Assembly: GCF_036389215.1 (NCBI RefSeq)
Contig: NZ_DASVQG010000144.1
Location: forward strand, 4,300-68,299
Reading direction: 5' to 3'
From: Jatrophihabitans sp.
GTDB taxonomy: Bacteria; Actinomycetota; Actinomycetes; Mycobacteriales; Jatrophihabitantaceae
Length of the DNA stretch: 64,000 nt
Below the pieces are notes generated by a model. That model was not told the DNA's origin. It saw only the letters and a list, made by a program, of their open reading frames with translations, and did not search any database. Below, in pieces: positions 1-14,389 of the stretch (position 1 is the stretch's first letter; every line of letters starts with the position of its first letter). Made by a program: the position numbers and the translations under genes.

Positions 1-1010
1 TGATGCACCACAGTCGCCAGATCGGCGTTCTGCATCCAGGCAGGTACCGAGCGCTCGGTCAGTGAGTCGGCGGTGCCGCGGACCGGCTCGATCAAGGGCC
101 GGCCGGGCTGGTAGGCGTTTGCATCGATGTCGTCGCGGGCACCGGATACCACGCCCAACCGGGACTGTGCGGCCTCGGCCAGCGCACGACCAGCGGCGAG
201 GTCAGCCTCGACGTGGCAGCCGAATCCCCCGCTGCGTATCGGCACGTCGCTGGACCAGATCTCAGCGGCATAGCACGGTATCCCGACACGGTTGGTGATA
301 TCGCAGAGGATGATCCGGCAACCGGCACCTCGCAGTGCCGTGTACACCGCCCTGGCATCCGGATCTCGAATGGTGGAGGGGTCCACGTAGCGGCGGTCAC
401 CCGGTGAACTCAGGCTGTGGTCCGTTATGCAGTCGCGCTCGATCAACTCCAGCAGGGCGTGGAGGACGGCCTCCTCGGTGTTGTTCCCGCTGGCCAGCCC
501 ATTGCTGGTCGTGTTGAACAGCCTGCGTCCCCAACCATCAGGCCTCGTGAAGTCAAGGGTGACGGTGTCGAACGGCACCAGGTGCGCCGAGCCGGTCAGG
601 ACGCCGTAGCCGGTGACCCAGTCCAGCACAGTGGCGGCGGTCAGCGGGGAGCGCGGGGCGAGGTTGAGAGTCCGGGGATCGTAGTGCAAGGCAAGATCGC
701 GGCTTGCCGCGCGGAACTCACTGGTGCAGATGGGGTTCTCGGCGTGCCATACCTCGATGCTTTCCATGATGGCACTCACCCGAGCTTCGACCAGGCGCAG
801 GCCCGTGCCGATGCTGACAGCATATGTAGAACCGACCGGTCGGTATGCTATGGCGACCGGCAGGCCGATCTCGTCCAAGCCGGTGATCTCAGCGACGCGG
901 GTGATCCCGAATCGCTCGCACAGCGGGTATACCCGTTCCCAGGTGAACTCCGGGCTCACCGCCCTGTACGAGCCCGAACGGCGGGCAACCCGATCGGTTA
1001 CTGAGGTCAT
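1..1010 (-). CDS. YcaO-like family protein, TfuA-associated (thioamide-forming) type; 3' end runs off the window
   Basis: Translated by hand; not in the ORF track because it has no stop inside the window. ATG at 1010 with GAGGA upstream. Reads MTSVTDRVARRSGSYRAVSPEFTWERVYPLCERFGITRVAEITGLDEIGLPV...SAIMESIEVWHAE...TTSNGLASGNNTEEAVLHALLELIERD...ALAEAAQSRLGVVSGARDDI, which are standalone YcaO motifs. Confidence 0.9.
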   Translation of the reverse strand, partial: MTSVTDRVARRSGSYRAVSPEFTWERVYPLCERFGITRVAEITGLDEIGLPVAIAYRPVGSTYAVSIGTGLRLVEARVSAIMESIEVWHAENPICTSEFRAASRDLALHYDPRTLNLAPRSPLTAATVLDWVTGYGVLTGSAHLVPFDTVTLDFTRPDGWGRRLFNTTSNGLASGNNTEEAVLHALLELIERDCITDHSLSSPGDRRYVDPSTIRDPDARAVYTALRGAGCRIILCDITNRVGIPCYAAEIWSSDVPIRSGGFGCHVEADLAAGRALAEAAQSRLGVVSGARDDIDANAYQPGRPLIEPVRGTADSLTERSVPAWMQNADLATVVH

Positions 1011-1477
1011 TGATGGTCCTCGGCTGAAGAGAGAGATGACCAGTGACAAGGCTGGACATGCCGGGAGCGATCGCCGAAGCTGATGCGCAGATTCGGCTTG
1101 CCCCCGGTTGCTTGGACTAGACGCTACGAACACCAGGTTGGCTCGGCAATACCGGCGCTTCCATGGCATGAAACTCGGCCGTCAGAGCGTGAGAGCTGAC
1201 CAGCTGTACGGGAAGGTTGGTGCGAAGCCGACATCGGCCCCAGCTCGCGCACCACCAGCGGGTCCGCGTTCAGGGCACGAGATCTGTTCGCTGCCACCAG
1301 CTGATGTGATGGTCGCAGTAATGACGCCATGAGGTGCTGCCGTACCTGACGCCGTTGCGGCAGGAATACCCGCCGAGGCTCCGCGCTCGGATGCCGAGCA
1401 CCCAGACTGGTGAGACGACAAGGACGGGGTCCGGTACCCAGCGCCGTCCGAGGTTGTAGCGCGGGGGAAGGGGCGCC

Positions 1478-2482
1478 ATGGTGGCTACCAAGCGGTGGCA
1501 ACTGGGGTTGTCAGCCTGTCTGGTAATGGCTGCTACAGCGATGGCCGGTTGCGCCGATCGGTCGCCGGCCATTTCTCGTGTCAGTGCCAGCTCCAGCGTC
1601 CCCGGCCTGATTGCGGCCAAGGCATCGACGATCCTCAGTTCCTTCGACGCCGCCGACTCGGCCGCCACGGTCTCGGGAGATATCGAGGCGCTGCGAAGTC
1701 AGGAGACAAATCCGGCGCTGCAGTCCAGCATTGCCGCAGCACGGCGAAATGCGGCGGCGAAGCGGGTGCAACCCGGTTACCGGCACACCAACCCCACCTT
1801 TGCCACGCCGACCGGAGATGCCTCCTGCTTCATGGTCGCGGCCACCCTGCAATCAACGGGCACCGAATTGGGAGTCACGGATTTCAGTCAGTTCGTGGCT
1901 ACTCCTGACGGGTCCTGGCGCCTCAGCCACAACGTCCACATCGGTCAGGAGGCAACGGCCGAGGTGCACGCCATCGGGTCGAAGCCGGCCATCCAGCTGC
2001 CTGGTCCGATACCCGCGGAGCGGTTGGACCAGGTGGCAGCCGAGATCTTCAACCGGAGTACCGGCAGCACAGCTCACGTGCGGACGCTGGTTGCCGAGAG
2101 TCCGGTACTGGACAAGCAGCTCGCCGTCGGGTGGCAGATCTACCAGCAGCAGATGAACAACTTCGGAATGAAGGTGACGCGAACCCGGAGCAGCGCGACC
2201 TGGTCGAGGTGCACAGCCCAGGCCGACGACGCTTACCTGAGGTTCCTCACGATGCAGATGACGGACACCGTCACGCCGGTATCCGGTGGGCAGGCGAAGG
2301 TGACGCTCAGCCCGCGCAGTCCGGACCTTGCAGCACTCGGGCGTTCGGTTCCGGTCAGCGGTACCCAGATCAGCATCGCCCGGGTGGAGGCATTCCTGGT
2401 GTCCCTGCCTGCCTCGAACGGCCCGGCCACCGTGCTCGGGCTGATGGACGCGCCGATAGCGCTCAGCAGCACCACCTCCTGA
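1478..2482 (+). CDS. Putative lipoprotein of unknown function
   Basis: 334-aa ORF; hydrophobic signal ending in the lipobox MAG-C; no family recognised. Confidence 0.7.
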   Translation: MVATKRWQLGLSACLVMAATAMAGCADRSPAISRVSASSSVPGLIAAKASTILSSFDAADSAATVSGDIEALRSQETNPALQSSIAAARRNAAAKRVQPGYRHTNPTFATPTGDASCFMVAATLQSTGTELGVTDFSQFVATPDGSWRLSHNVHIGQEATAEVHAIGSKPAIQLPGPIPAERLDQVAAEIFNRSTGSTAHVRTLVAESPVLDKQLAVGWQIYQQQMNNFGMKVTRTRSSATWSRCTAQADDAYLRFLTMQMTDTVTPVSGGQAKVTLSPRSPDLAALGRSVPVSGTQISIARVEAFLVSLPASNGPATVLGLMDAPIALSSTTS

Positions 2483-2659
2483 ATATGGGCAGACCTATCT
2501 GAGAGCGCAGCTGCCGGCCGCACGTCACGCGAGGCGTAGAAGTCACTGCCCCGGCGGATGCGCAATGGGCACAACGGTGCGGATCGATGCAATCGTCGGC
2601 TCCTCGCCCCCAGGGACCGGACAATCATCGGCAGCACAACCGCACAGATGGGAAGACCG

Positions 2660-4960
2660 ATGTTTCGTCCGCGGCTGAGATCGGACTACACATCGGTATG
2701 CCTGGATTCCCCGGACGGCATTTCCGTGTTGATCACGGGAGAAGCTCGTACCCTGCTCATCGAGGGCGCGGTCACCGCGGATCTGCTGGAATTACTGGAC
2801 GGCACCCGGCACACCCACGAGCTCGTACAGCAGTTGAGCGAGCGGTATCCGCCGAGAGCGGTCGGCGGGGCGATACGCAGGCTGACCGAACTCGGAGTTC
2901 TCGCCAGTGGCGGCACTGCCCAGGACTCGAGGACAGCGGCTGCCTGGGATGCCCGCGGCACCGATCCAGATCTGGCAGAGGCCTGGCTGCGCAACGGCCG
3001 GGTCACCCTGATCGATGCGGGGGCGCCGACCGCGGCGGTCATCGCTCGAGCCCTGGCTGACGCCGGCCTGGCGGTGGACCGGATCGAGTCGCACGCGATC
3101 ACTGCCAGCCGGCTCGCCGCGGCCGATCCGGGCAGTGAACTGGTGGTGCTGCCCCGGTCCTACGTCGATCCGATCCTGGCGGGGATCAACCAGGTCTGCC
3201 TCGACCTCCAACGGCCGTGGACGCTGGCCCGCCCCCATGGGCTCACCCTCCTGCTGGGCCCCCACCTGGTTCCCGGCCGCACCGGCTGCTGGCAGTGTTT
3301 ACTCCAGCGGTGGCAGGAGAATGAGCAGCTGGAGAACTATGTTGCCGCGCAACGGCCACAACTGCCGCGGCTGGATTCAGCCAGGGCCGCGCACGCCTCG
3401 ACGGCGTCGGTGCTGGCGGGCCTGCTTCTGGCTGAACTGCCGGTGCTGGCTGTGAACCGTAGCTCACCTCGGATCACCGGACGCATGATCGCGCTCGACA
3501 CGCGTGATCTGACGGCGAGCGAGCATGTCCTCGTGCATCAACCCCAGTGCCCGGCCTGCGGAAGCCCTGAGCTGGTGCGGCAAGCCACCGGGCGCGTGGT
3601 GATCTCCTCGGCCGCGAGCACCAGCGACGACAGGGAACCGTCACGGACCCTGAGCCTGGCCGAGACCTGGGACCGGCTGCAGCATCACGTCAGCCGGTAT
3701 TTCGGCGTGGTTTCCAGGCTTGCGCCGGTAGCGATGGCCGGTGCTGCCGGTACTCATACCTACAGTGCTGTGCACAACTTCGCACTTGCGCGAAGTGCCA
3801 CGACCCTGCGCATGAATCTGCGTGGTCAGAGTGGTGGAAAGGGTCGCACGGACCTGCAGGCCCGGGTGGGCGCCGTCTGCGAGGCGGTAGAGCGTTATTG
3901 CGGCCTGTGGCGGGGTGAGCTACCCACCCGGCAGGCAAGCTATCTCGAACTGGGACCCGAGGAGGCGGTGAACCTCCGCCAGCTACTGCACTATTCCGAT
4001 GACCAGTACGACCAGCGGGAGAAGTTGAATTCCTCGCTGGCTCATTTCCACCGAATTCCACGCCGCGCCCCGGACGACCTGGTGATGAGCTGGACCACCG
4101 GGTGGTCGCTGACCCACCAGGTGGCCCGGGCGATCCCGGCGGCATATTGCTGGTACGGCCATCCCGAACTCGAGAGCCTGGGCGTGACCGGCGCGGACTC
4201 CAATGGTTGCGCGGCGGGCAACACCCTTGCCGAAGCGGTGTTGCACGGTTTCTGCGAGCTGGTCGAGCGGGACAGCGTGGCGTTGTGGTGGCACCATCGA
4301 TCCAGGGTTCCTGGCGTCGACCTGGACTCGTTCGCCGACCCCTGGATCACGCAGTTGCGTCGCCGCTACGAGCAGGACCACCATCGGGACCTGTGGGCGC
4401 TGGACCTCACCGCGGACCTGGGCATTCCCGCGTTCGCGGCTGTGTCGGCATGCCGGGCTCGGCCGACCGAGGACGTCCTGGTCGGCTTCGGCGCCGACCT
4501 CGATGCCGGGGTTGCGCTCAGCCGGGCGATGGCCGAGGTCGATCAGTTCCTGCCGGCGGTTTCCCGATACGAGGCGGGGTCGACCCGGTACGGATTGTCG
4601 GAGCCCGAGGCGCTCCGGTGGTTCATCTCGGTCCGGGTGGCCGAGCATCCCTGGTTGGTTCCGGACCCGGACGTGCCCGCCACCACCGCCGACCGGCACC
4701 CCGACCGGACGTCGCTGGAGGTAGCCGACGGTGTCGCGCACTGTGTCCGCATCGCTGCTGCCGCAGGGCACGAGGTCATCGTGGTCGACCAGTCACGTCC
4801 CGACATCGAGCTGTCGGTCGCCCGGGTGATCGTGCCGGGGCTTCGCCATTTCTGGCGCCGCCTCGGGCCGGGGAGGCTGTGGACGATTCCAGGCCTGCTC
4901 GGCAGGGAGCCACTCGCGGCGTCCGAGCATGAGGTGAATCCGATGAACGTCTTCTTCTGA
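2660..4960 (+). CDS. Fused TOMM/LAP cyclodehydratase (RRE + E1-like C domain + YcaO D domain)
   Basis: Likely start ATG 2660 (GGAAG upstream). Zn-binding pairs GCWQC and PQCPACG; YcaO motifs CEAVERY and DSNGCAAGNTLAEAVLHGFCELVERD; C-terminus EVNPMNVFF typical of azoline-forming YcaO. Confidence 0.93.
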   Translation: MFRPRLRSDYTSVCLDSPDGISVLITGEARTLLIEGAVTADLLELLDGTRHTHELVQQLSERYPPRAVGGAIRRLTELGVLASGGTAQDSRTAAAWDARGTDPDLAEAWLRNGRVTLIDAGAPTAAVIARALADAGLAVDRIESHAITASRLAAADPGSELVVLPRSYVDPILAGINQVCLDLQRPWTLARPHGLTLLLGPHLVPGRTGCWQCLLQRWQENEQLENYVAAQRPQLPRLDSARAAHASTASVLAGLLLAELPVLAVNRSSPRITGRMIALDTRDLTASEHVLVHQPQCPACGSPELVRQATGRVVISSAASTSDDREPSRTLSLAETWDRLQHHVSRYFGVVSRLAPVAMAGAAGTHTYSAVHNFALARSATTLRMNLRGQSGGKGRTDLQARVGAVCEAVERYCGLWRGELPTRQASYLELGPEEAVNLRQLLHYSDDQYDQREKLNSSLAHFHRIPRRAPDDLVMSWTTGWSLTHQVARAIPAAYCWYGHPELESLGVTGADSNGCAAGNTLAEAVLHGFCELVERDSVALWWHHRSRVPGVDLDSFADPWITQLRRRYEQDHHRDLWALDLTADLGIPAFAAVSACRARPTEDVLVGFGADLDAGVALSRAMAEVDQFLPAVSRYEAGSTRYGLSEPEALRWFISVRVAEHPWLVPDPDVPATTADRHPDRTSLEVADGVAHCVRIAAAAGHEVIVVDQSRPDIELSVARVIVPGLRHFWRRLGPGRLWTIPGLLGREPLAASEHEVNPMNVFF

Positions 4961-4966
4961 AACCAG

Positions 4967-6451
4967 GTGCCACCCATGGTCGTACCACTACCCAGGATCG
5001 AGCCAGTGGAACCGTCGGCGGGCGAGGCCGTCGGCGTGCGGGAACTGTTCCGGCTGCGGCCTGATGCTCGACTTGTCAGCGGGGCCGATGGAACCCTTGC
5101 GCTTCGGCAGAGCCGGTTCGAGGTGGTGGTGGATCCCTCCAGCATCGCGCGGCGCGCCCTCCTGCTCCGCCTTGCCGAGACGTGGCTGGACGAAGAGGAA
5201 CTCGATCGGCTGCTGGTCTCCAGCGCCGGCGAACAGGGCGTCCTGCAGGGCCAGGTCCTGCTCCGGCGGCTGGCCGCGCATTCATGGCTCTGCCGGCGGC
5301 TGCAGACGGGTGAGCGTCCGCTGCTCGACGTCGTTCCGCAGGGCCTCGGCGCCACCAGTCGGATGTCGGCCGAGGCAGCCCAGCCGGGGGTCAGTTACCG
5401 GTTCTCCCGGTTCACGGCGGCTCTGAGCGGGCCGAACGGTCTGAGCCTGCGCAACCCGCTTGCGAACGTGACGATCGAACTCGCCGAGCCCGCGCTCGGC
5501 TGGGCAGTTGCGCTGGCCGCTTCCACGGGCTGTGACCAGCAGGACATCGAGCGCACCGCGAACCTGGAGGGCAGCGCGGCAGCCGGCGTCCTCGATGAGC
5601 TGATCCGGGCGCGGGTCCTGGTCCGGCCGCTGGAACTGAAGGCTGAGCAGAGCGGGCCGCCACAGGTGTTCTGGGAGCCTGAGGAACTCGCCGTCCACCA
5701 CAGGTCGCGGGCCGGCAGGCATGTGCTGCCGGTGGGCGGCACGTACCGCTTCCGGGATCGGCTTCCTCCCGAATCGCTCGGCAGCGGGAACCCGGAGGCC
5801 GCGGGGATCGCCCTCCCGGTGCCGGATCTGGCCGAGATCTCGGCTGCGGAGCCGAGCCTGAGCGCGGTGGTGGCGGCTCGGCGCACGCTTCGCGAACATG
5901 ATGAGTCGCTGCCTATCACCGTCGAGGAACTGGCGCAGTTCCTCTACCGGGTGCAACGCACCTGGGACGTGCGCGAGGTCGAGGGCATGCAGGTCGGGCG
6001 GCGTCCGTACCCGAGCGCGGGCCAGGTCTGTGAACTGGAGATCTATCCGCTGGTGAGTAGCTGCGCCGGACTGGCGCCCGGGCTGTATCACTACGACTCA
6101 CTCGGCCATGCGCTGGTACGGGTGGCGGACCCGAACGGGCACGCCGTCAGAGTCCTGAACTTTGCCAAGGCGGCTTCAGGCGCGTCGGGTACTCCGCAGG
6201 TACTGATGGTGGTGACCGCCCGGGTACCCCGTTTGCTGTGGAAGTACGAGGGACTTGGCTACTCGCTGATGCAGAAGGACGCCGGGGTATTGATCGAGTT
6301 GATGTATCTGGTGGCCACCGCGATGAAGCTGGCGCCGTGCGCACTGGGCTCCGGTGACTCGGAGGGTTTCGCGGCGTTGTCAGGCCTGGATCCGCTTGCC
6401 GAGCCGAGTATCGCCGACTTCATGCTCGGCTCGGTGTTGGAGGAGGTGTGA
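4967..6451 (+). CDS. SagB/ThcOx-family FMN-dependent azoline dehydrogenase
   Basis: RRTLREH, RPYPSAG..ELEIYP, GLYHYD, WKY..LGYSL..KDAG, LVATAMKLAPCALG motifs; directly follows the cyclodehydratase. Confidence 0.92.
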   Translation: MPPMVVPLPRIEPVEPSAGEAVGVRELFRLRPDARLVSGADGTLALRQSRFEVVVDPSSIARRALLLRLAETWLDEEELDRLLVSSAGEQGVLQGQVLLRRLAAHSWLCRRLQTGERPLLDVVPQGLGATSRMSAEAAQPGVSYRFSRFTAALSGPNGLSLRNPLANVTIELAEPALGWAVALAASTGCDQQDIERTANLEGSAAAGVLDELIRARVLVRPLELKAEQSGPPQVFWEPEELAVHHRSRAGRHVLPVGGTYRFRDRLPPESLGSGNPEAAGIALPVPDLAEISAAEPSLSAVVAARRTLREHDESLPITVEELAQFLYRVQRTWDVREVEGMQVGRRPYPSAGQVCELEIYPLVSSCAGLAPGLYHYDSLGHALVRVADPNGHAVRVLNFAKAASGASGTPQVLMVVTARVPRLLWKYEGLGYSLMQKDAGVLIELMYLVATAMKLAPCALGSGDSEGFAALSGLDPLAEPSIADFMLGSVLEEV

Positions 6452-7257
6452 GATTCCGGCAGCAGGCGCTGCGCAAACTCGAAGGTCCCGAGCAACTCGA
6501 TCAGGTGGTTCGGCTGGCCAGCGCTCCTTCCTGGCTACTCGCCGGCCTGTTGAGCGTCATCGTGCTGACCGCGGCGGTGTGGGCATCGGTGAGCACCGTG
6601 GCACGCACCGTACGGGCGACTGGGGTGCTGATCCACTCCAATGGTGTTTCCGACCTCGACGCGACCAAGAGCGGTGGGGTGGTCAAGGTCTGGGCGCAGC
6701 CCAACCAGCTGATCACCGCAGGCGCCCCGCTTTACACCCTGCAGCGCACCGAGGGCTCGCTCGAGACGATCAATTCACCCTGGGATGCCTACGTCGTCGG
6801 AATCCTCGTCTCGGAGGGCCAGCTGGTCCAGCCCGGCAGCAGGATCGCCTCCCTGGAGCGCGTCGATACCCCCGGTGACGCCTTGCGGGCCGTGGTATTC
6901 GTCTCCGCCGCGGCTGCGCCGATGTTGCGGGCCGGCTTTCCGGCCGACATCTCGGCCAAGTCGGTTCCCACCGCGGTGTTCGGCACGCTCAGCGGCACCG
7001 TGGCCTCGGTAGGAGCCTTTCCCGAGACCCAGGAATCGCTCCGGGCCTTTCTCGGTGGCGGAGTCGACTCGTCGGCGATCCTGTCCCATGGCAGCGTGAT
7101 CCGGGTGACGGTCACCCTGGCGACGGTGGCCGGCTCGTCGACGACCCTGCGCTGGTCCAAGACCGCACCACCGTTCCAGTTGAACTCCGAGAGTTCGGTG
7201 ACCGCCCTGTTCACGGTGGCCGAGGAGCATCCGATGAATTGGGTGCTCGGGCGATGA
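6448..7257 (+). CDS. NHLP bacteriocin system secretion protein (HlyD-like membrane fusion protein)
   Basis: N-terminus FRQQALRKLEGPEQLDQVVRL, one TM segment, biotinyl/lipoyl-like segment VSEGQLVQPG; 4-bp overlap with the upstream gene. Confidence 0.88.
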   Translation: MRFRQQALRKLEGPEQLDQVVRLASAPSWLLAGLLSVIVLTAAVWASVSTVARTVRATGVLIHSNGVSDLDATKSGGVVKVWAQPNQLITAGAPLYTLQRTEGSLETINSPWDAYVVGILVSEGQLVQPGSRIASLERVDTPGDALRAVVFVSAAAAPMLRAGFPADISAKSVPTAVFGTLSGTVASVGAFPETQESLRAFLGGGVDSSAILSHGSVIRVTVTLATVAGSSTTLRWSKTAPPFQLNSESSVTALFTVAEEHPMNWVLGR

Positions 7258-7285: not shown

Positions 7286-9460
7286 ATGAACGTCATGGAG
7301 CTTCGGACCAGTCGACCTGACGGCCTTGCCCGGCGTAAGCGGGTGCGCACGCCCACGGTGATCCAGATGGAGGCCGTGGAATGTGGTGCTGCGGCGCTGG
7401 GAATAGTGCTGGCCCACCACGGCCGCCACATCCCCCTGGAGGAGCTGCGGCGAACCTGCGGTGTCAGCAGGGACGGGTCCACCGCCTCCAGCGTGCTGAA
7501 GGCAGCGCGCAGCTACGGCTTGTCCGCGCGCGGTTTCCAGATGGATGTCGCCAACCTGGGAGAGCTGGCACTGCCGGCCATCCTGTTCTGGAAGTTCTCC
7601 CACTTCGTAGTTCTGGAAGGCTACGGCCGCACCGTCCGCTTGAACGACCCGGCGATCGGCCCCAGGTCGGTCAGCTGGGAGGAGTTCGACGGCTCCTTCA
7701 CCGGCATCGTGCTCACCCTGGAACCGGGACCGGACTTCCGTTCCGGGGGCAGGCCCTACCGGGTGCTGTCCGCTCTGGCCGGTCGGCGTCCCCAATTCAG
7801 TTCGGTGCTGCCGTTGGCCGTGCTGCTCGGCGTGCTCATCGCGGTCGCCGGGTTCACGATGCCGGCTCTCACCAGGATGTTCGTGGACCGGGTGCTGCTC
7901 AGCGGTGGGGAGGGGGAGCTGGCCGGGCTGATCGCCGCCACCGGGTTGGCCGCCGCGGTCACCCTCGCCGCCGCGGTGCTGCAACAGCGACTTCTGGTGC
8001 GGACCGAAGCGACGTTCGCCCTCGGCACCGCCGCGCGCTTCTTCCGGCATCTGTTGCGACTGCCGCTGGAATTCTTCGACCAGCGCCAGGCAGCCGATCT
8101 CACCAACCGGGTGCGTAGCAACGACGTCGTCGTCGACATCATGGTCCGGAGGCTGGCCTCGACGGTGGTGGACTTTGCGCTGGTCCTCACCTACGGCGTG
8201 TTGTTGTGTATGTACGACGTCACCCTCGGCCTGCTCGCCATGTTCTTCTCGGGCCTGAACGTCGTCGTATTGCGTTACGTGTCCACGATCAGGTCCAGCG
8301 CCGTGGCCGGCTTGCAGGCCGATCGGGGCAAGCTGTTCACCGCCGTCTTCACCACGATCCAGATGATCGAGACGCTCAAGGCCAGCGGCGAGGAGCAGGC
8401 GGGTTATCAGCGCTTCGCCGGCCGGGCCGCGGCAGTGACGTCGGCCCAGCAAAGGCTGGGTGTTCCGGCTGCCATGATGGCAGCAGTCCCCGCCTTTCTG
8501 GCAGCGGTCAACGCAGCACTGGTGCTGTGGCTGGGTAGTTTCCGGGCTGTCGAGGGTGCCCTGAGCATCGGCGTCCTGGTAGCGATGCAGGGCCTGATCA
8601 CCTCGATGAATCGGCCGATCACCAACCTCACGCTGCTCGGCACTCGCCTCCAGGAGATGAGCGCGGATCTGAGCCGCCTGCGAGATGTCGAGCGCTATCC
8701 CCGGCGAACCCACGCCGAACCGACCACTCGGGTGCCGGAGATCGATGGCCATCTGCGGATCGACCGAGTGACTTTCGGCTACAACCCGCTGGCCGCTCCG
8801 CTGCTGGAGGACTTCTTCCTGGATCTGCCCGCGGGTAGCCGGGTGGCACTGGTCGGCGGATCGGGGAGCGGTAAGTCAACCGTCGGGCGTTTGGTGGCCG
8901 GGCTGTATGAGCCCTGGTCCGGCTCGGTCACCCTGGACGGCAGGCGGCGGCAGGAGATAGGCCGCGAACTATGGGCAGCAACCTTCGCCATGGTCGACCA
9001 GGACCAGCTGTTCTTCGAGGCCAGTGTCAGGGACAACGTCACATTGTGGGACCACTCGGTGCCCGACGAGGACATCGTCTGCGCTCTCACCGACGCCGCG
9101 ATCTATTCCGAGATCTCCCGGCGGCCCGGCGGACTGGCCAGCATGGTGTCCGAAGGTGGCCGGAACTTCTCCGGAGGCCAGCGGCAACGGCTGGAGATCG
9201 CACGCGCGCTGGTGCGCAACCCGTCGGTGCTGGTGCTCGACGAGGCCACCAGCGCGCTCGACGCCGAGACTGAGCGGCTGATCGACCGCAACCTGCGCCG
9301 GCGGGGGGCGACGTGCCTGATCGTGGCGCATCGGCTCTCGACGATTCGCGACTGCGACCTGATCGTCGTGCTCAAGGCGGGGCGGGAGATAGAGCGCGGC
9401 ACCCATGACGAACTCATAGCCGCGGACGGGCACTACGCCCAACTCGTTCGCCAGCAGTGA
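7286..9460 (+). CDS. NHLP-family bacteriocin export ABC transporter with C39 peptidase domain
   Basis: QMEAVECGAAAL (catalytic Cys), SHFVV (His), TM domain, Walker A GGSGSGKST, signature FSGGQRQR, LVLDEATSALD. Confidence 0.95.
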   Translation: MNVMELRTSRPDGLARRKRVRTPTVIQMEAVECGAAALGIVLAHHGRHIPLEELRRTCGVSRDGSTASSVLKAARSYGLSARGFQMDVANLGELALPAILFWKFSHFVVLEGYGRTVRLNDPAIGPRSVSWEEFDGSFTGIVLTLEPGPDFRSGGRPYRVLSALAGRRPQFSSVLPLAVLLGVLIAVAGFTMPALTRMFVDRVLLSGGEGELAGLIAATGLAAAVTLAAAVLQQRLLVRTEATFALGTAARFFRHLLRLPLEFFDQRQAADLTNRVRSNDVVVDIMVRRLASTVVDFALVLTYGVLLCMYDVTLGLLAMFFSGLNVVVLRYVSTIRSSAVAGLQADRGKLFTAVFTTIQMIETLKASGEEQAGYQRFAGRAAAVTSAQQRLGVPAAMMAAVPAFLAAVNAALVLWLGSFRAVEGALSIGVLVAMQGLITSMNRPITNLTLLGTRLQEMSADLSRLRDVERYPRRTHAEPTTRVPEIDGHLRIDRVTFGYNPLAAPLLEDFFLDLPAGSRVALVGGSGSGKSTVGRLVAGLYEPWSGSVTLDGRRRQEIGRELWAATFAMVDQDQLFFEASVRDNVTLWDHSVPDEDIVCALTDAAIYSEISRRPGGLASMVSEGGRNFSGGQRQRLEIARALVRNPSVLVLDEATSALDAETERLIDRNLRRRGATCLIVAHRLSTIRDCDLIVVLKAGREIERGTHDELIAADGHYAQLVRQQ

Positions 9461-9467
9461 AGGATCA

Positions 9468-12400
9468 GTGGTTCGGATGCCGACGACGGTCGAGGACAGC
9501 GGCTGGGCGACCCTGCACGAACTCGCCCAGGAGCCGGTAACCGGGCCCGTCTGGCTCGACGGTGACGCCGGTGCGTATCTCGTGTCCGGCGGACCGGCGG
9601 ACCTGTTCGCGGTTCGGCGTACTCGACCGGGTGTGCGTGCGCGCCGGCACTTCGTGGCTCGGGTGCCGGAGTTCAGCGTCGTTCCCGCTACCCGGAGCAT
9701 CGGGTCGTGGCGACTGGAACTGGTCGGGTTGCCGGAAACCGAGGTGCGAGCCTGCGCGCGATCACCGGTAGCGGAGTCCGAAGCCGCCGTCGCCGCCGCG
9801 CTGACCCAGCCGGACCCGCCACGTGAGCTGACGGCGCTGCAGCAGGCGGTGGTGACCGGGCTGGATCACGCGCTACTGGCGATCGCGGACTCCGTTCGGG
9901 ACGGCCAAGCCCCGCGGAACTCGATCGCGCTGCAGCCGCGGCAGATATTGTCCGTGAGTGCTGGCAGCGCGATAACCGGAAACGCCCGGGTGTGGTGGGT
10001 CCGGGCGATCGGCGGGGTGCTCACCCGCAACGAGGGCGCCGCGGCAGAGACCGTGGCCGACGGAGAACTCACCCTGTTCGCCGGCCGCGACTGGCTGGTG
10101 GCAGGTTCGGACTGCACCGTCGAGGCGGTCTCCACCGCCGACCTGCTGAGCAGCGGTCAACTGGGCGTGTCGCTCGAGCACTTCGGTGCCGCCCTGCTCA
10201 CCACGGTGGCGGCGCGGGCGGGACGGGAAAGGTCCCGCAACGAGGCAGCCCTGGCCGCCCGTAAGCGGGCGGACGCCGCTGCCGTTGCCGGAGCTGCCCG
10301 TTCAGCGGTGGGCGTGCTCGGCGCCCGGCTCCACCGGATCGAGCCCGATCACGATGCCAGGCAGCGGCTCGACCTCTACCGTTACGCACGCGCGGTGCTG
10401 ACGATCGTCACCGAGCGAGGTCCCGTCCGGGTGAGATTGACCGAGCCGCCGGACCGGCGCAATCGGGCGACGACGCACCCGGACGCGATTCGAGCGATCT
10501 GCCTCAGCTCCGGCTTGCACATCCGCGAGGTGAAGTTGCCTCCGCGATGGTGGCGAGAAGACCTCGGCCCGCTGATCGGATGGCGCCGACACGGCGCCGA
10601 CACCCCCGTTCGCGCGGTCGCACTGGTGTTCAAGCACGGCAGCTATGTCGAGGTGGATCCCGAGACCCGCAGCTCACGGCGGATAGAACAAGGGCCTGCC
10701 GCCGAGTTCGAAGGCACAGCCACCCAGGTGCAGGTGCCACTTCCGATCGGATCGACGTTGCGCCAGGCCCTGACCCATGGCCTGGCCGGCAGCCGGGCCG
10801 ACATACGGGGCACCGTGGTAGCCGGGCTGATCACAGCAACGCTGGGTCTGGCAACGCCGGTGATCAGCGGAATCCTGCTCGGGGACCTCGCTCAGAACGG
10901 TTCGGTGCGTGGCCTTCGCACATTCCTTCCCTTGCTGTTGTGCTCCGCCTTCATCTCCGCTGGTGCCCTCATCGTGCAGAACCTGCACGTCCTGCGGCTG
11001 GAAGGACGCGCTGAGGCCGGCACCCAACTCGCGCTGTGGGACCGCATCATGCGACTGCCCGTGCGATTCTTCCGTTCGATGACCAGCGGTGAACTGGCCA
11101 ATGCCGTCCTCGGCATCTCCTTCGTCCGGGAATCGATCAGCGGGATCTTCGTGCCGTGCGTGGGAGCATCCTTCGCGATCCTCGGCGACCTCACGCTGAT
11201 CTTCGTCGTTGCCCCGATCCTCGGATTCTTCGCCCTGGGACTGATCGCGGCCTGTGCCGCGCTGGTAGCGGTACTCGGGCGGCTCGTCATCAGGCGGGCG
11301 CGGTCGGCGTTGCCGCAGGAGCACCATGCGACTGCCCTGACCAACCAACTTCTCGGCGGCATCACCAAGATCAAGCTGGCCGCGGCCGAGGACCGGGCAT
11401 TCGCCCAGTGGTCTGAAGCGCATACCGGCGCGCGCGGCATCCTGCTGCCGGTGCGGCGGGTACAGGCGATCGTGCTGGCTTGGACCGCGGTGCTGCCGAT
11501 CCTGGGCCAATTGCTGTTCTTCCTCACGCTGGCCGGCCCCCTCGAGCACAGGGTGAGCATCAGCAACTTCTTCGTGGTCAACGTGGCGTTCTCGCTGCTG
11601 CTCGGCGCGATGCTGGTTCTGGTTGCGGCGAGCATCGAGATCGTCGCGGTGGTCCCGCGACTGGAGATCCTGCAACCCATAATCTCGGCGGAGTCCGAGC
11701 AGCGCAGTGATCTCATCTCCCCCGGGGATCTCAGCGGTGACATCACGCTGGCAAGCGTCTCCTTCGGCTACCTGCCGGACGATCCGCCGGTCATCGAGGA
11801 CGTGTCACTGCACATCCGTCCCGGCGCATTCGTCGCCATCGTCGGGCCCAGCGGATGCGGCAAGTCGACCCTTCTCCGCCTGCTCCTCGGATTCGACGCG
11901 CCACGCTCGGGCTCGGTTCACTACGACGATCAGGACCTGGAGGAGTTGGACGTCCAAGCCGTGCGGCGGCAGTGCGGCGTGGTGCTGCAGGACGGCCAAC
12001 TGTTCGCGGGCAGCCTTCGCGAGAACATTTCCGGTGCCGGCAATTTCACGCTGGAAGAGGCATGGGAGGCAGCCGCCTTGGCGGGAATCTCGGAGGACAT
12101 AGAAGCCTTCCCGATGGGAATGGCAACCATGGTGCCGGTCGGTGGCGGGACCCTGTCGGTGGGACAGCGGCAACGCGTCCTGATCGCCAGAGCCCTGATA
12201 CACCGGCCGCGCATCCTGTTCTTCGACGAGGCCACCAGCTCGTTGGACAATCGGACCCAGGAGATCGTGACAGCAAGCACGAAGAAGCTGGCCGCGACGA
12301 GAATCGTCATAGCCCATCGGCTGTCTACCATCATCGACGCCGATCAGATCGTGGTGATGGATCATGGCCGCATCGTTCAGACGGGCGATTACCAGAGCCT

Positions 12401-12509
12401 CATGAGTGATCGGGACGGGTTGTTCGCCAAGCTGGCGGTGCGTCAACTGATCGAGCTGCCGGGCAGCTGGTCGGCCGATGGGGAGTTCCGGCCGGATCAG
12501 CCGGCCTGA
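9468..12509 (+). CDS. NHLP bacteriocin export ABC transporter permease/ATPase subunit (no peptidase domain)
   Basis: Long N-terminal extension, TM domain, GPSGCGKST, LSVGQRQR, FFDEATSSLDN. Confidence 0.93.
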   Translation: MVRMPTTVEDSGWATLHELAQEPVTGPVWLDGDAGAYLVSGGPADLFAVRRTRPGVRARRHFVARVPEFSVVPATRSIGSWRLELVGLPETEVRACARSPVAESEAAVAAALTQPDPPRELTALQQAVVTGLDHALLAIADSVRDGQAPRNSIALQPRQILSVSAGSAITGNARVWWVRAIGGVLTRNEGAAAETVADGELTLFAGRDWLVAGSDCTVEAVSTADLLSSGQLGVSLEHFGAALLTTVAARAGRERSRNEAALAARKRADAAAVAGAARSAVGVLGARLHRIEPDHDARQRLDLYRYARAVLTIVTERGPVRVRLTEPPDRRNRATTHPDAIRAICLSSGLHIREVKLPPRWWREDLGPLIGWRRHGADTPVRAVALVFKHGSYVEVDPETRSSRRIEQGPAAEFEGTATQVQVPLPIGSTLRQALTHGLAGSRADIRGTVVAGLITATLGLATPVISGILLGDLAQNGSVRGLRTFLPLLLCSAFISAGALIVQNLHVLRLEGRAEAGTQLALWDRIMRLPVRFFRSMTSGELANAVLGISFVRESISGIFVPCVGASFAILGDLTLIFVVAPILGFFALGLIAACAALVAVLGRLVIRRARSALPQEHHATALTNQLLGGITKIKLAAAEDRAFAQWSEAHTGARGILLPVRRVQAIVLAWTAVLPILGQLLFFLTLAGPLEHRVSISNFFVVNVAFSLLLGAMLVLVAASIEIVAVVPRLEILQPIISAESEQRSDLISPGDLSGDITLASVSFGYLPDDPPVIEDVSLHIRPGAFVAIVGPSGCGKSTLLRLLLGFDAPRSGSVHYDDQDLEELDVQAVRRQCGVVLQDGQLFAGSLRENISGAGNFTLEEAWEAAALAGISEDIEAFPMGMATMVPVGGGTLSVGQRQRVLIARALIHRPRILFFDEATSSLDNRTQEIVTASTKKLAATRIVIAHRLSTIIDADQIVVMDHGRIVQTGDYQSLMSDRDGLFAKLAVRQLIELPGSWSADGEFRPDQPA

Positions 12510-12574: not shown

Positions 12575-13336
12575 TCAGCCGACATCGATGGCGGCGGCCG
12601 ACTGGTCCATCGGAAAGCTGACACCTGAGTGCTGCGCTATCAGATCGGGCACCCGCGCCTGCCCGCTGCGTTCCACCGTCGACTGAAATGCCTCGGCGAG
12701 CAGGATGGTGATGCCTTGGGTGAGTGCGGTGGTCTCCCGGTCGAGATCCTCCCAGGAGGTGAAGCTGGCTCCTTCGATCGACGGCAAGGTGGTGACCAGG
12801 CGCAGCCCGACCTCATGTACCAGCTCATCGGCCTGCGTCTGGACGTGGTCCAGGATCTCCACCAGGGCCTGCAGTGCCACGCTGGGGGCTACGCCGGCCC
12901 GGCGCAGGGTGAAAGCTGCGCGGAGCAGGCGCGGGCGCGTGGTACGTACGGTGCCGTCATTTCCTCGGGACAGCACGCCGTGCCGAAGCAGGCCGTTCGT
13001 CAGGGCAGGATGGTCCACCCAGAACCGATCGAGGTTCGCGCTGCAGGTCTCGCCCTGCTCCGAGCCGTCGCGCACGCCGAGAATCGACGCTATCGAGACG
13101 AGATTGAACCCCTGGCGCTGGAGATTCTTGATCGCCTCGATGCGCCTGATGTGTTGTCCGTCGTAATAGGCCACCCGGCCGATGCGAGTGGGTTGGGCAA
13201 GCAGCCCACGCGCCTGGTGTGCGCGGATGTTGCGGGCGGACATGCCTACCCGGTGTGCGAACTCTTCCACCGTGAGCCGAATTCCCGGATCGGACAGCTC
13301 GGGACTGACTCCGGATGGCAGAGGAGCAGTCATCAA
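12575..13336 (-). CDS. MerR-family transcriptional regulator
   Basis: LTVEEFAHRVGMSARNIRAHQARGLLAQPTRIGRVAYY N-terminal HTH; no Cys cluster for metal sensing. Confidence 0.85.
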   Translation of the reverse strand: MMTAPLPSGVSPELSDPGIRLTVEEFAHRVGMSARNIRAHQARGLLAQPTRIGRVAYYDGQHIRRIEAIKNLQRQGFNLVSIASILGVRDGSEQGETCSANLDRFWVDHPALTNGLLRHGVLSRGNDGTVRTTRPRLLRAAFTLRRAGVAPSVALQALVEILDHVQTQADELVHEVGLRLVTTLPSIEGASFTSWEDLDRETTALTQGITILLAEAFQSTVERSGQARVPDLIAQHSGVSFPMDQSAAAIDVG

Positions 13337-13646: not shown

Positions 13647-14012
13647 ATGGAACCCAGCAGCAGGTCCAAATTCGTCACGGCTTACAGCCGCCTGGTCGCA
13701 GATGTGTGGGCCGAGCCGGACAAGGAACGACAATTGGAAGCAGATCCGCGCGGGTTTATCGCCGGGTACGGGTTGGAGGTCCCGGACGGGGTGAAAGTGA
13801 CGTTGCTCCGCGATGTCGGCGATGCCGAACCGGACCTTGACCAGCAGGTCCAGACCTGGCTCCAAGCACCGGAAACCGGGGAACTCATCCTGGTCGTCCC
13901 GGCCCTGGACCCGGTGGCGGAGTCCGAGCTCGACGAGCACGAGCTCGACGCCGTGGTGGCCGGACTGGATCTGAGCTGCGCCTGCTGCTGTCCATGCTGC
14001 TGTACGACCTGA
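13647..14012 (+). CDS. NHLP (nitrile-hydratase-like leader) RiPP precursor; predicted core LDLSCACCCPCCCTT
   Basis: Strong RBS GGAGGAG before ATG 13647; leader with RLVADVWAEP..LEADPRG..GYGLEVP; double-glycine-like motif ELDEHELDAVVAG followed by a 15-aa core containing 7 Cys. Confidence 0.92.
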   Translation: MEPSSRSKFVTAYSRLVADVWAEPDKERQLEADPRGFIAGYGLEVPDGVKVTLLRDVGDAEPDLDQQVQTWLQAPETGELILVVPALDPVAESELDEHELDAVVAGLDLSCACCCPCCCTT

Positions 14013-14143: not shown

Positions 14144-14149
14144 TGCTTG

Positions 14150-14223
14150 CGACCCCGACGGGACTCGAACCCGCGACCTCCGCCGTGACAGGGCGGCGCG
14201 CTAACCAACTGCGCTACGGGGCC
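14150..14223 (-). tRNA. tRNA-Asp(GTC)
   Basis: GGCCCCGTAGCGCAGTTGGTTAGCGCGCCGCCCTGTCACGGCGGAGGTCGCGGGTTCGAGTCCCGTCGGGGTCG; cloverleaf, anticodon GTC. Confidence 0.97.
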
Positions 14224-14316
14224 TAGAAGGAACCTCTAGACCTGCGTGCTCACCGGCAACTTTCCGGACGAGCCTGCGAAACCATACTACGTGCAGCACC
14301 GATCGTGCCTGCCGCG

Positions 14317-14389
14317 TACCCCCAACGGGATTCGAACCCGTGCTACCGCCGTGAAAGGGCGGCGTCCTAGGCCACTAGACGATAGGGGC
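14317..14389 (-). tRNA. tRNA-Glu(TTC)
   Basis: GCCCCTATCGTCTAGTGGCCTAGGACGCCGCCCTTTCACGGCGGTAGCACGGGTTCGAATCCCGTTGGGGGTA; anticodon TTC. Confidence 0.97.

Follow-up and report, generated by a model that had tools for sequence, protein, structure and literature searches.

What does a second, standalone YcaO enzyme do beside a gene cluster that already encodes an azole-forming YcaO, and which peptide does it modify? The question is raised by a 64,000-nucleotide stretch of Jatrophihabitans sp. DNA (contig NZ_DASVQG010000144.1; hereafter, the window), at whose left edge a minus-strand ycaO gene lies divergently from an operon for the azole modification and export of a peptide made by the ribosome and modified after translation (RiPP). 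A first-pass annotation of the sequence had offered two alternatives: either the cysteine-rich (poly-Cys) peptide of the operon is both thiazole- and thioamide-modified, or a second RiPP cluster begins just left of the window. The latter is the better supported of the two, in the sense that a second RiPP gene set is indeed present leftwards; it is not a separate cluster, however, but half of one composite cluster with two precursor peptides. In this cluster, YcaO and its partner TfuA probably thioamidate the second precursor (precursor-2), while the fused cyclodehydratase (C-D) and the SagB dehydrogenase would act on the poly-Cys peptide. Gene identities, adjacency, precursor homology and gene-set conservation were computed directly, and we infer the thioamidation chemistry, the pairing of enzymes with peptides and the methylation by a radical S-adenosylmethionine (SAM) enzyme.

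The ycaO gene and its left flank

The genes of this half of the cluster are given below; L001 is a metagenomic contig that extends the window leftwards.

1..1010, minus strand: ycaO, standalone, TfuA-associated type; codons 1-336 of about 391 in the window, the remainder beyond the left edge
L001:11187-11543, outside the window: precursor-2, 118 aa, between ycaO and tfuA
outside the window, starting about 500 bp downstream of ycaO with one small open reading frame (ORF) between: tfuA, 449 aa
L001:12270-12974: C-terminal region of TfuA, about 235 aa, the TfuA domain covering only about residues 1-210
L001:13063-15156, outside the window, downstream of tfuA: B12-binding radical SAM enzyme, about 700 aa
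L001:15204-15911, following the radical SAM gene: cbiX-type chelatase; counterpart at L082:14570-14821

The minus-strand translation of positions 3-1010 runs for 336 codons without a stop, with the first base of its ATG at 1010, and holds GITRVAEITGLD, MESIEVWHAE, SNGLASGN and EAAQSRL, all exact matches to the motifs from which a YcaO outside the ORF track had been proposed. The gene is missing from the ORF listing because its frame leaves the left edge and such ORFs are omitted there. The part within the window matches the Pfam family YcaO (PF02624, E 1.9e-54, residues 68-298) and the NCBIfam model TIGR00702 (181.9 bits, cut-off 75.65), both far above chance. The ATG at 1010 is likely the true start, and a better one than the GTG at 959, because a GAGGA sequence resembling a Shine-Dalgarno element lies 8 nt upstream of it and because the N-terminal stretch conserved in relatives, RxGxYR...PExTWERV, maps upstream of the GTG. 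A public metagenome annotation (P0001) begins at this GTG and so drops 17 N-terminal residues conserved in relatives. The distance of 1.65 kb to the C-D gene, as first given, agrees with the annotated C-D start at 2660; counted from the longest-ORF start at 2558, it is 1.55 kb.

A protein search led to the full-length product (P0001, annotated with 374 aa), which is encoded on the 32-kb contig Ga0334934_000053 of the JGI metagenome 3300034006, our locus L001. This contig matches the window with 0 mismatches across the full 10,959-bp overlap and adds 10.2 kb leftwards. Its gene order, read from ycaO, is a 118-aa precursor ORF, tfuA, the B12-binding radical SAM gene, cbiX and then genes unrelated to the cluster (a nucleotidyltransferase pair and a sugar ABC transporter). 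Both genes that the first-pass annotation had suggested looking for left of the window, tfuA and a second precursor, are therefore found on an identical contig.

The proposal of a thioamide-type YcaO is also supported, since tfuA is nearby and thioamide-type models and structures outscore azoline-type ones. The full-length enzyme consists of one domain and has about 391 residues (PF02624, E 4e-64). P0001 scores 187 bits with TIGR00702, 181 with TIGR03266, the model of the YcaO that thioamidates McrA, and 102 with the SagD model TIGR03604; on the last, scores for this YcaO are only 96-102 bits, below the cut-off of 219.25. No E1-like/ocin-ThiF partner is fused or adjacent to it, TIGR03882 and TIGR03603 being silent here and both matching the C-D protein of the window. 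Residues E66, E69, E171, E174 and R175 are invariant across 25 relatives, and the acidic ATP/Mg motifs MESIE and ELIERD are intact. Ranked against PDB sequences, the thioamide YcaO MJ1094 of M. jannaschii comes first (6pe3, E 2e-26), followed by TruD (8e-15) and LynD (2e-13). An AlphaFold (AF2) model of good quality scores (predicted local distance difference test 87.6, predicted template modelling score 0.89) retrieved MJ1094 entries as all five top Foldseek matches, the best being 6peu with a template modelling (TM) score of about 0.8 in both directions. The phylogenetic placement proposed earlier gave the same picture: in a neighbour-joining tree, the protein falls within the TfuA-linked clade, far from the YcaO domain of the window's C-D protein. 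Taken together, these comparisons, in which the characterised thioamide YcaOs are archaeal only, show the enzyme to be more similar in sequence to archaeal YcaOs that form thioamides than to those that form azolines. By its profile scores, it is a relative, not an orthologue, of the McrA-type thioamidation YcaO.

Conservation was counted by tblastn of all cluster proteins against 80 related genomic loci. TfuA adjoins ycaO in 78 of them, the exceptions being one truncated contig and one rearranged contig of a metagenome-assembled genome. Adjacency to TfuA is an established marker of thioamidation, and it is the strongest argument for this chemistry here. The TfuA protein itself is clearly recognised (Pfam TfuA, PF07812, E 8.9e-43), and among PDB entries it matches the TfuA structure 6xp8 best (E 1e-28). 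Its C-terminal extension is kept in 62/80 loci at 31-47% identity, including loci without precursors of the nitrile hydratase-like leader peptide (NHLP) type; it matched no Pfam or NCBIfam family, and a search of a 5.8-billion-protein collection gave a single, uninformative match. It could be a docking domain for the substrate or for YcaO, and is a candidate for NHLP-leader recognition.

The radical SAM enzyme has homologues in 46 loci, with the Cys motif CYWNKCTFC in 44 and CYWNRCTFC in 2 more; the spacing is Cx4Cx2C, not the usual Cx3Cx2C. It matches the RiPP C-methyltransferase model weakly (68 bits, cut-off 282), PhpK-type models are also weak, and among solved structures no informative relative was found (TokK, E 0.002). 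Of the loci compared, only L001 and its relative L082 (81% identity), which make up the window lineage, have a cbiX gene after the radical SAM gene. Its position may reflect plain synteny or a cobalamin-related accessory gene; given its presence in these two loci alone among those compared, we rejected it as a cluster member, as unproven.

Two precursors in one composite cluster

The poly-Cys peptide is the following ORF of the window:

13647..14012, plus strand: NHLP-type precursor 1 (poly-Cys), leader end ...ELDAVVAG, core LDLSCACCCPCCCTT; TIGR03793, E 4.5e-6

It is 53-65% identical to Micromonosporaceae peptides that form Network 7 in the RiPPER catalogue. The leader of precursor-2 ends in ...ELDAVGAG and is followed by the core TNNIIFIVIL. 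The two leaders are homologous (38% identity, E 4e-18) and both end in a double-glycine-type motif, while the cores are wholly different. The NHLP leader model TIGR03793 matches both weakly, with 26.4 bits for the poly-Cys precursor and 16.4 for precursor-2 against a cut-off of 50.9. Across both families, 17 of 18 representatives match it at E <= 0.1 (best 1.6e-8), and every precursor checked scores below the curated cut-off.

Precursor-2 homologues directly adjoin ycaO in 50/80 loci. The family is defined by a conserved leader, an (A/G)(A/G)G leader end and a short core that usually opens with a patch rich in Asn and continues with beta-branched hydrophobic residues; ADNNVNIIAVLIL, NNVNNNLYQSK, ADNNVNVSLCIFAETA and MAESNNINIIAIIL are such cores. 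The cores of the window, L082 and Micromonospora have no Cys, and those of the window lineage also lack Ser and Thr, except for one N-terminal Thr in the window's own core. In Parafrankia (L061), a peptide of the precursor-2 type is the sole precursor beside both enzyme sets.

The full gene set (fused C-D, SagB, HlyD, two NHLP ATP-binding cassette (ABC) subunits, poly-Cys precursor, precursor-2, YcaO, TfuA with its C-terminal extension and B12 radical SAM) is present in 40 of the 80 loci, and several more are incomplete only through the ends of the compared loci. Among Micromonosporaceae, about 45 genomes hold this gene set. The order is colinear in Micromonospora, Dactylosporangium, Luedemannella and Winogradskya. 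In Actinoplanes, the window, L082 and L083/L084, ycaO and the azole/export operon point away from each other, and a DUF8094 lipoprotein gene comes first in the operon. By YcaO identity, L082 (81%) and L083/L084 (59%) are the closest relatives of the window. The YcaO/TfuA half and the azole/export half thus form a single composite cluster, conserved as such and served by one shared exporter. It had been reasoned that homologous NHLP clusters consistently lacking the standalone ycaO would speak against its involvement; instead, they consistently contain a TfuA-type ycaO. In two loci, L002 and L069, precursor-2, YcaO/TfuA and the NHLP exporter are present, and the stretch compared shows neither C-D nor SagB nor a poly-Cys peptide.

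Several single loci depart from the common pattern. In L007 (Actinoplanes sp. HUAS TT8, 9534-9875 and downstream), the only full cluster without the B12 radical SAM gene, the precursor-2 core is LVVIIIIL, with no Asn; in loci having the radical SAM gene, the cores carry at least one Asn, mostly in an NN or NxN patch. This single locus hints that the radical SAM target is tied to the Asn motif. In L033 (Actinoplanes sp. CA-252034, 8920-9336), ...VVAGWTRPGPAAAPAAAPDRRP stands where the Cys-rich core of the poly-Cys precursor is expected; this looks like a frameshift among the core codons, whether the gene is a pseudogene or the sequence is in error. Finally, 13 actinobacterial loci (L006, L037, L038, L040, L042-L044, L047, L048, L053, L054, L058 and L064) encode a YcaO 41-56% identical to that of the window and a TfuA with the extension, with no NHLP precursor, radical SAM or NHLP exporter; they form a sister family.

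The azole/export half and its surroundings comprise the following features of the window:

1011..1477: intergenic region that separates ycaO (minus) from the divergent azole/export operon (plus)
1478..2482, plus strand: lipoprotein-like protein, weak DUF8094, first gene of the operon; the N-terminus MVATKRWQLGLSACLVMAATAMAGC resembles a lipoprotein signal
2558..4960, plus strand: fused C-D cyclodehydratase, with a leader-binding E1-like/ocin-ThiF domain and an azoline-forming YcaO domain
4967..6451, plus strand: SagB-type flavin mononucleotide (FMN) dehydrogenase (azoline to azole); TIGR03605, 147 bits (cut-off 78.4); Pfam Nitroreductase, ThcOx
6448..7257, plus strand: HlyD-like NHLP secretion adaptor; TIGR03794, E 4.6e-33, 114.7 bits (cut-off 156.2); Pfam HlyD_3
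7286..9460, plus strand: NHLP bacteriocin export ABC transporter with N-terminal C39 leader peptidase; TIGR03796, 919 bits (cut-off 853.3); Peptidase_C39, E 2.5e-33
9468..12509, plus strand: second NHLP ABC transporter subunit; TIGR03797, 702 bits, just below the cut-off of 709.4
12575..13336, minus strand: MerR-family regulator; Pfam MerR_1, E 6.5e-13; conserved in the cluster family
14149-14223 and 14316-14389, minus strand: tRNA-Asp(GTC) and tRNA-Glu(TTC); ARAGORN, Rfam; right-hand boundary of the cluster

The C-D protein scores 231 bits with the SagD-family model TIGR03604, above its cut-off, and matches the leader-peptide-binding model TIGR03882 (E 1.1e-31) and Pfam YcaO (E 9e-88); the metagenome annotation starts its gene at 2660 and not at 2558. 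Together with the SagB dehydrogenase, it makes the operon one for azole formation of the thiazole/oxazole-modified microcin or linear azol(in)e-containing peptide (TOMM/LAP) kind. Judged by these profile matches, the window also encodes a dedicated NHLP-type exporter, composed of the C39-ABC protein, the second ABC subunit and the HlyD adaptor.

The intergenic region presumably holds both promoters; neither an ORF with homology nor a match to a sigma-70-like promoter or terminator consensus was found in it. The lipoprotein-like protein has a weak precomputed match to PF26366, and no family was found in our Pfam and NCBIfam scans. All clusters of the divergent layout (6 Actinoplanes loci, L082 and L083) have its gene at the same position, and the colinear Micromonospora layout lacks it; the product might be an immunity or accessory protein. 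A MerR gene similar to that of the window lies between the second ABC gene and the precursors in Micromonospora L003, and after the radical SAM gene in L083. The tRNA genes, which were the only Rfam matches, begin 137 bp past the stop codon of the poly-Cys precursor. The position and gene order of the cluster differ from those of the Micromonospora version and so suggest a rearrangement or insertion near the tRNA genes.

The probable substrate of thioamidation

In established YcaO/TfuA biochemistry, sulfide that TfuA provides from a thiocarboxylated carrier attacks the amide, whose oxygen YcaO then phosphorylates. By analogy, the YcaO of the window lineage would bind ATP/Mg, the target amide carbonyl would be attacked by sulfide that TfuA releases from a thiocarboxylated sulfur-carrier protein, and the oxygen of the resulting hemiorthoamide would be phosphorylated, so that the departure of phosphate would leave a backbone thioamide (O to S). 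The B12 radical SAM enzyme would most likely C-methylate unactivated carbons of the precursor-2 core, and the C-D cyclodehydratase with SagB would turn the Cys residues of the poly-Cys core into thiazoles. During export, the C39 domain would cut the leader after (A/G)(A/G)G; because the leaders are homologous and have double-glycine-type ends, both peptides are expected to share cleavage and export, one NHLP system handling the two.

Judged from gene arrangement and core sequences, precursor-2 is the most likely substrate of YcaO/TfuA. It is favoured as the substrate of these proteins and of the radical SAM enzyme because it adjoins ycaO wherever it is present. In this lineage and in Micromonospora, its Cys-free cores offer the azole enzymes no site, yet the peptide is conserved; moreover, L002 and L069 retain it without C-D, SagB and the poly-Cys peptide, which argues for a role as the thioamide substrate.

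Several observations weigh against so clean a division of labour, or against the chemistry assumed. The YcaO domain of LynD superposes nearly as well as MJ1094 (TM score normalised by the query, 0.77), so that the fold alone does not discriminate, and the enzyme's 181-182 bits with TIGR03266, the only curated thioamide YcaO model, fall short of its equivalog cut-off of 365. Single Cys residues occur in the precursor-2 cores of L034, L055, L061 and L083 (for example, VSLCIFAETA, IIVACVVNA and VIACVVFA), which suggests cross-talk rather than a clean separation of the enzymes; such cross-talk is plausible, since with homologous leaders either enzyme set might accept both peptides, and the evidence leans, if at all, towards an action of the azole enzymes on precursor-2 in some lineages. 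The YcaO has no recognisable leader-binding domain, although its proposed role calls for recognition of an NHLP leader. A search of the literature found no characterised product of the cluster family.

The closest competitor of the preferred assignment is that YcaO/TfuA thioamidates the poly-Cys precursor, alone or besides precursor-2, giving a hybrid thiazole/thioamide peptide, as in the first alternative of the first-pass annotation. In the named genomes, the poly-Cys precursor is never found without a TfuA-type YcaO, which fits this reading equally well, and the homology of the leaders is also in its favour; moreover, in RiPPER the TfuA-associated precursor assigned to Network 7 is the poly-Cys peptide (PMC6511847), and TfuA clusters with extra azole genes were noted earlier (PMC8120280). 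However, cyclising all 7-8 Cys would use most backbone carbonyls of so short a core and leave few amides, a dedicated second precursor adjoins ycaO in 50/50 loci with NHLP precursors, and it is precursor-2, not the poly-Cys peptide, that the thioamide-only variants L002 and L069 keep. We therefore regard poly-Cys thioamidation as unlikely, though it deserves to be kept in mind.

Two further readings appear weaker. The YcaO fold supports several chemistries, and MusD, LynD and TruD are significant matches in structure and sequence; the standalone enzyme might thus form an azoline or amidine or perform a MusD-like ATP-dependent cleavage on a precursor, with TfuA as an accessory. We consider this improbable in view of the value of TfuA adjacency as a thioamidation marker, the presence of a dedicated C-D enzyme in the same cluster and the precursor-2 cores of the window lineage, which have almost no nucleophiles for cyclodehydration (no Cys; one N-terminal Thr). 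More improbable still is a pair that modifies a cellular protein, as with the McrA thioglycine of methanogens or the ribosomal protein uL16 of Pseudomonadota, and neighbours the RiPP genes by chance. The McrA-type YcaO is the best curated model match, the more remote YcaO-TfuA pairs, from Proteobacteria and from other actinobacteria, have no NHLP context, and uL16 thioamidation was reported in 2026 (PMC13063428). Nevertheless, the McrA equivalog cut-off is far from reached, ycaO and tfuA have a precursor gene between them, and synteny with precursors, radical SAM and exporter is kept in about 45 genomes despite gene-order rearrangement. A McrA-type housekeeping role was rejected on account of the sub-cut-off model score and the RiPP-cluster context.

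The locus shows that an azole cluster can be just one half of a conserved system of larger extent, here completed by YcaO-TfuA, the B12 radical SAM enzyme and a precursor of its own. Natural products seldom carry backbone thioamides, and structures are known for only a few families of thioamidated RiPPs. The system is of interest as it would combine two YcaO chemistries, a B12 radical SAM enzyme and two paralogous NHLP precursors with one exporter. A bolder proposal, which we put forward only tentatively and hold to be doubtful as a whole, is a new chemotype: a short, very hydrophobic, Asn-headed peptide with thioamides and C-methylations, in effect a thioamidated mini-proteusin, made and exported together with a contiguous poly-thiazole peptide, with cross-action of the enzymes and possibly as a functional pair. 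Were this true, a single peptide would bear thioamide, thiazole and C-methyl groups in lineages with Cys in the precursor-2 core. Cultured type strains of Micromonospora and Actinoplanes have the same cluster, among them M. chalcea DSM 43026 (L026), M. endolithica JCM 12677 (L008) and Actinoplanes philippinensis DSM 43019 (L035); from such strains the product or products could be isolated, and in them the division of labour between two YcaOs on paralogous leaders is directly testable.

Comparison with known systems

The best sequence and fold matches of the YcaO are the archaeal enzymes that act on an McrA glycine (MJ1094, 6pe3/6peu; M. kandleri, 6ci7), which share with it a standalone, single-domain form of about 380 aa, the conserved ATP/Mg motif residues and a TfuA partner (6xp8). 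However, identity is only about 25% (181 bits against the cut-off of 365), the predicted substrate here is a leader-bearing RiPP precursor and not McrA, and the TfuA of the window cluster has the additional C-terminal region of about 235 aa.

With the characterised systems for thioamitides such as thioviridamide, for thiovarsolins and for thioamidated thiopeptides such as saalfelduracin and thiopeptin, compared by description and not by sequence, the cluster shares a YcaO-TfuA pair in a RiPP context and, as in the thiopeptide cases, a second, azole-forming YcaO (compare PMC6511847 and PMC8120280). It differs from them in its NHLP leaders, C39/ABC export, two paralogous precursors with unrelated cores and B12 radical SAM enzyme, and in having no lanthipeptide-type dehydratases or pyridine synthase.

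Proteusins are polytheonamide-type NHLP peptides modified by the B12 radical SAM C-methyltransferases PoyB and PoyC. Precursor-2 resembles them in its NHLP-type leader and its Asn-rich, beta-branched hydrophobic core (NNVNIIAVLIL, NNIIFIVIL), and the cluster does so in its B12 radical SAM enzyme. In contrast to proteusin systems, no radical SAM epimerase or N-methyltransferase was found in it, the cores have only 8-17 residues, the match to the radical SAM C-methyltransferase model is weak (68 vs. 282 bits), and the YcaO/TfuA pair is no proteusin feature.

The closest resemblance is to RiPPER Network 7, in which the cluster family was catalogued in silico by Santos-Aberturas et al. (2019, Nucleic Acids Res., PMC6511847), with weak PF02979 matches for its precursors and the remark 'possible second related PP' (precursor peptide); the family itself is a bioinformatic prediction. 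A later survey also noted TfuA clusters with additional azole-type ycaO genes and nitroreductases (PMC8120280). As in Network 7, a poly-Cys nitrile-hydratase-like precursor (53-65% identity; Network 7 core ...SCACCCPCCCT), a second related precursor and YcaO-TfuA occur here in one locus, with YcaO and TfuA adjacent and accompanied by a B12 radical SAM enzyme, fused C-D, SagB and the NHLP exporter. The differences concern the arrangement: here, ycaO is transcribed divergently from the azole/export operon, the precursor-2 gene separates ycaO from tfuA, the poly-Cys precursor is 12.6 kb off, past the transporters, and genes for the DUF8094 lipoprotein and cbiX are added. The YcaO of the window is 50-56% identical to its Network 7 counterparts and forms a deep branch, and its source is uncultured. 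The locus is thus no categorical novelty: it belongs to a family already catalogued in silico, as a member that is divergent, rearranged and of metagenomic origin. To the 2019 catalogue, our analysis adds a suggested precursor for the thioamide machinery, a definition of the precursor-2 family and the thioamide-only variants.

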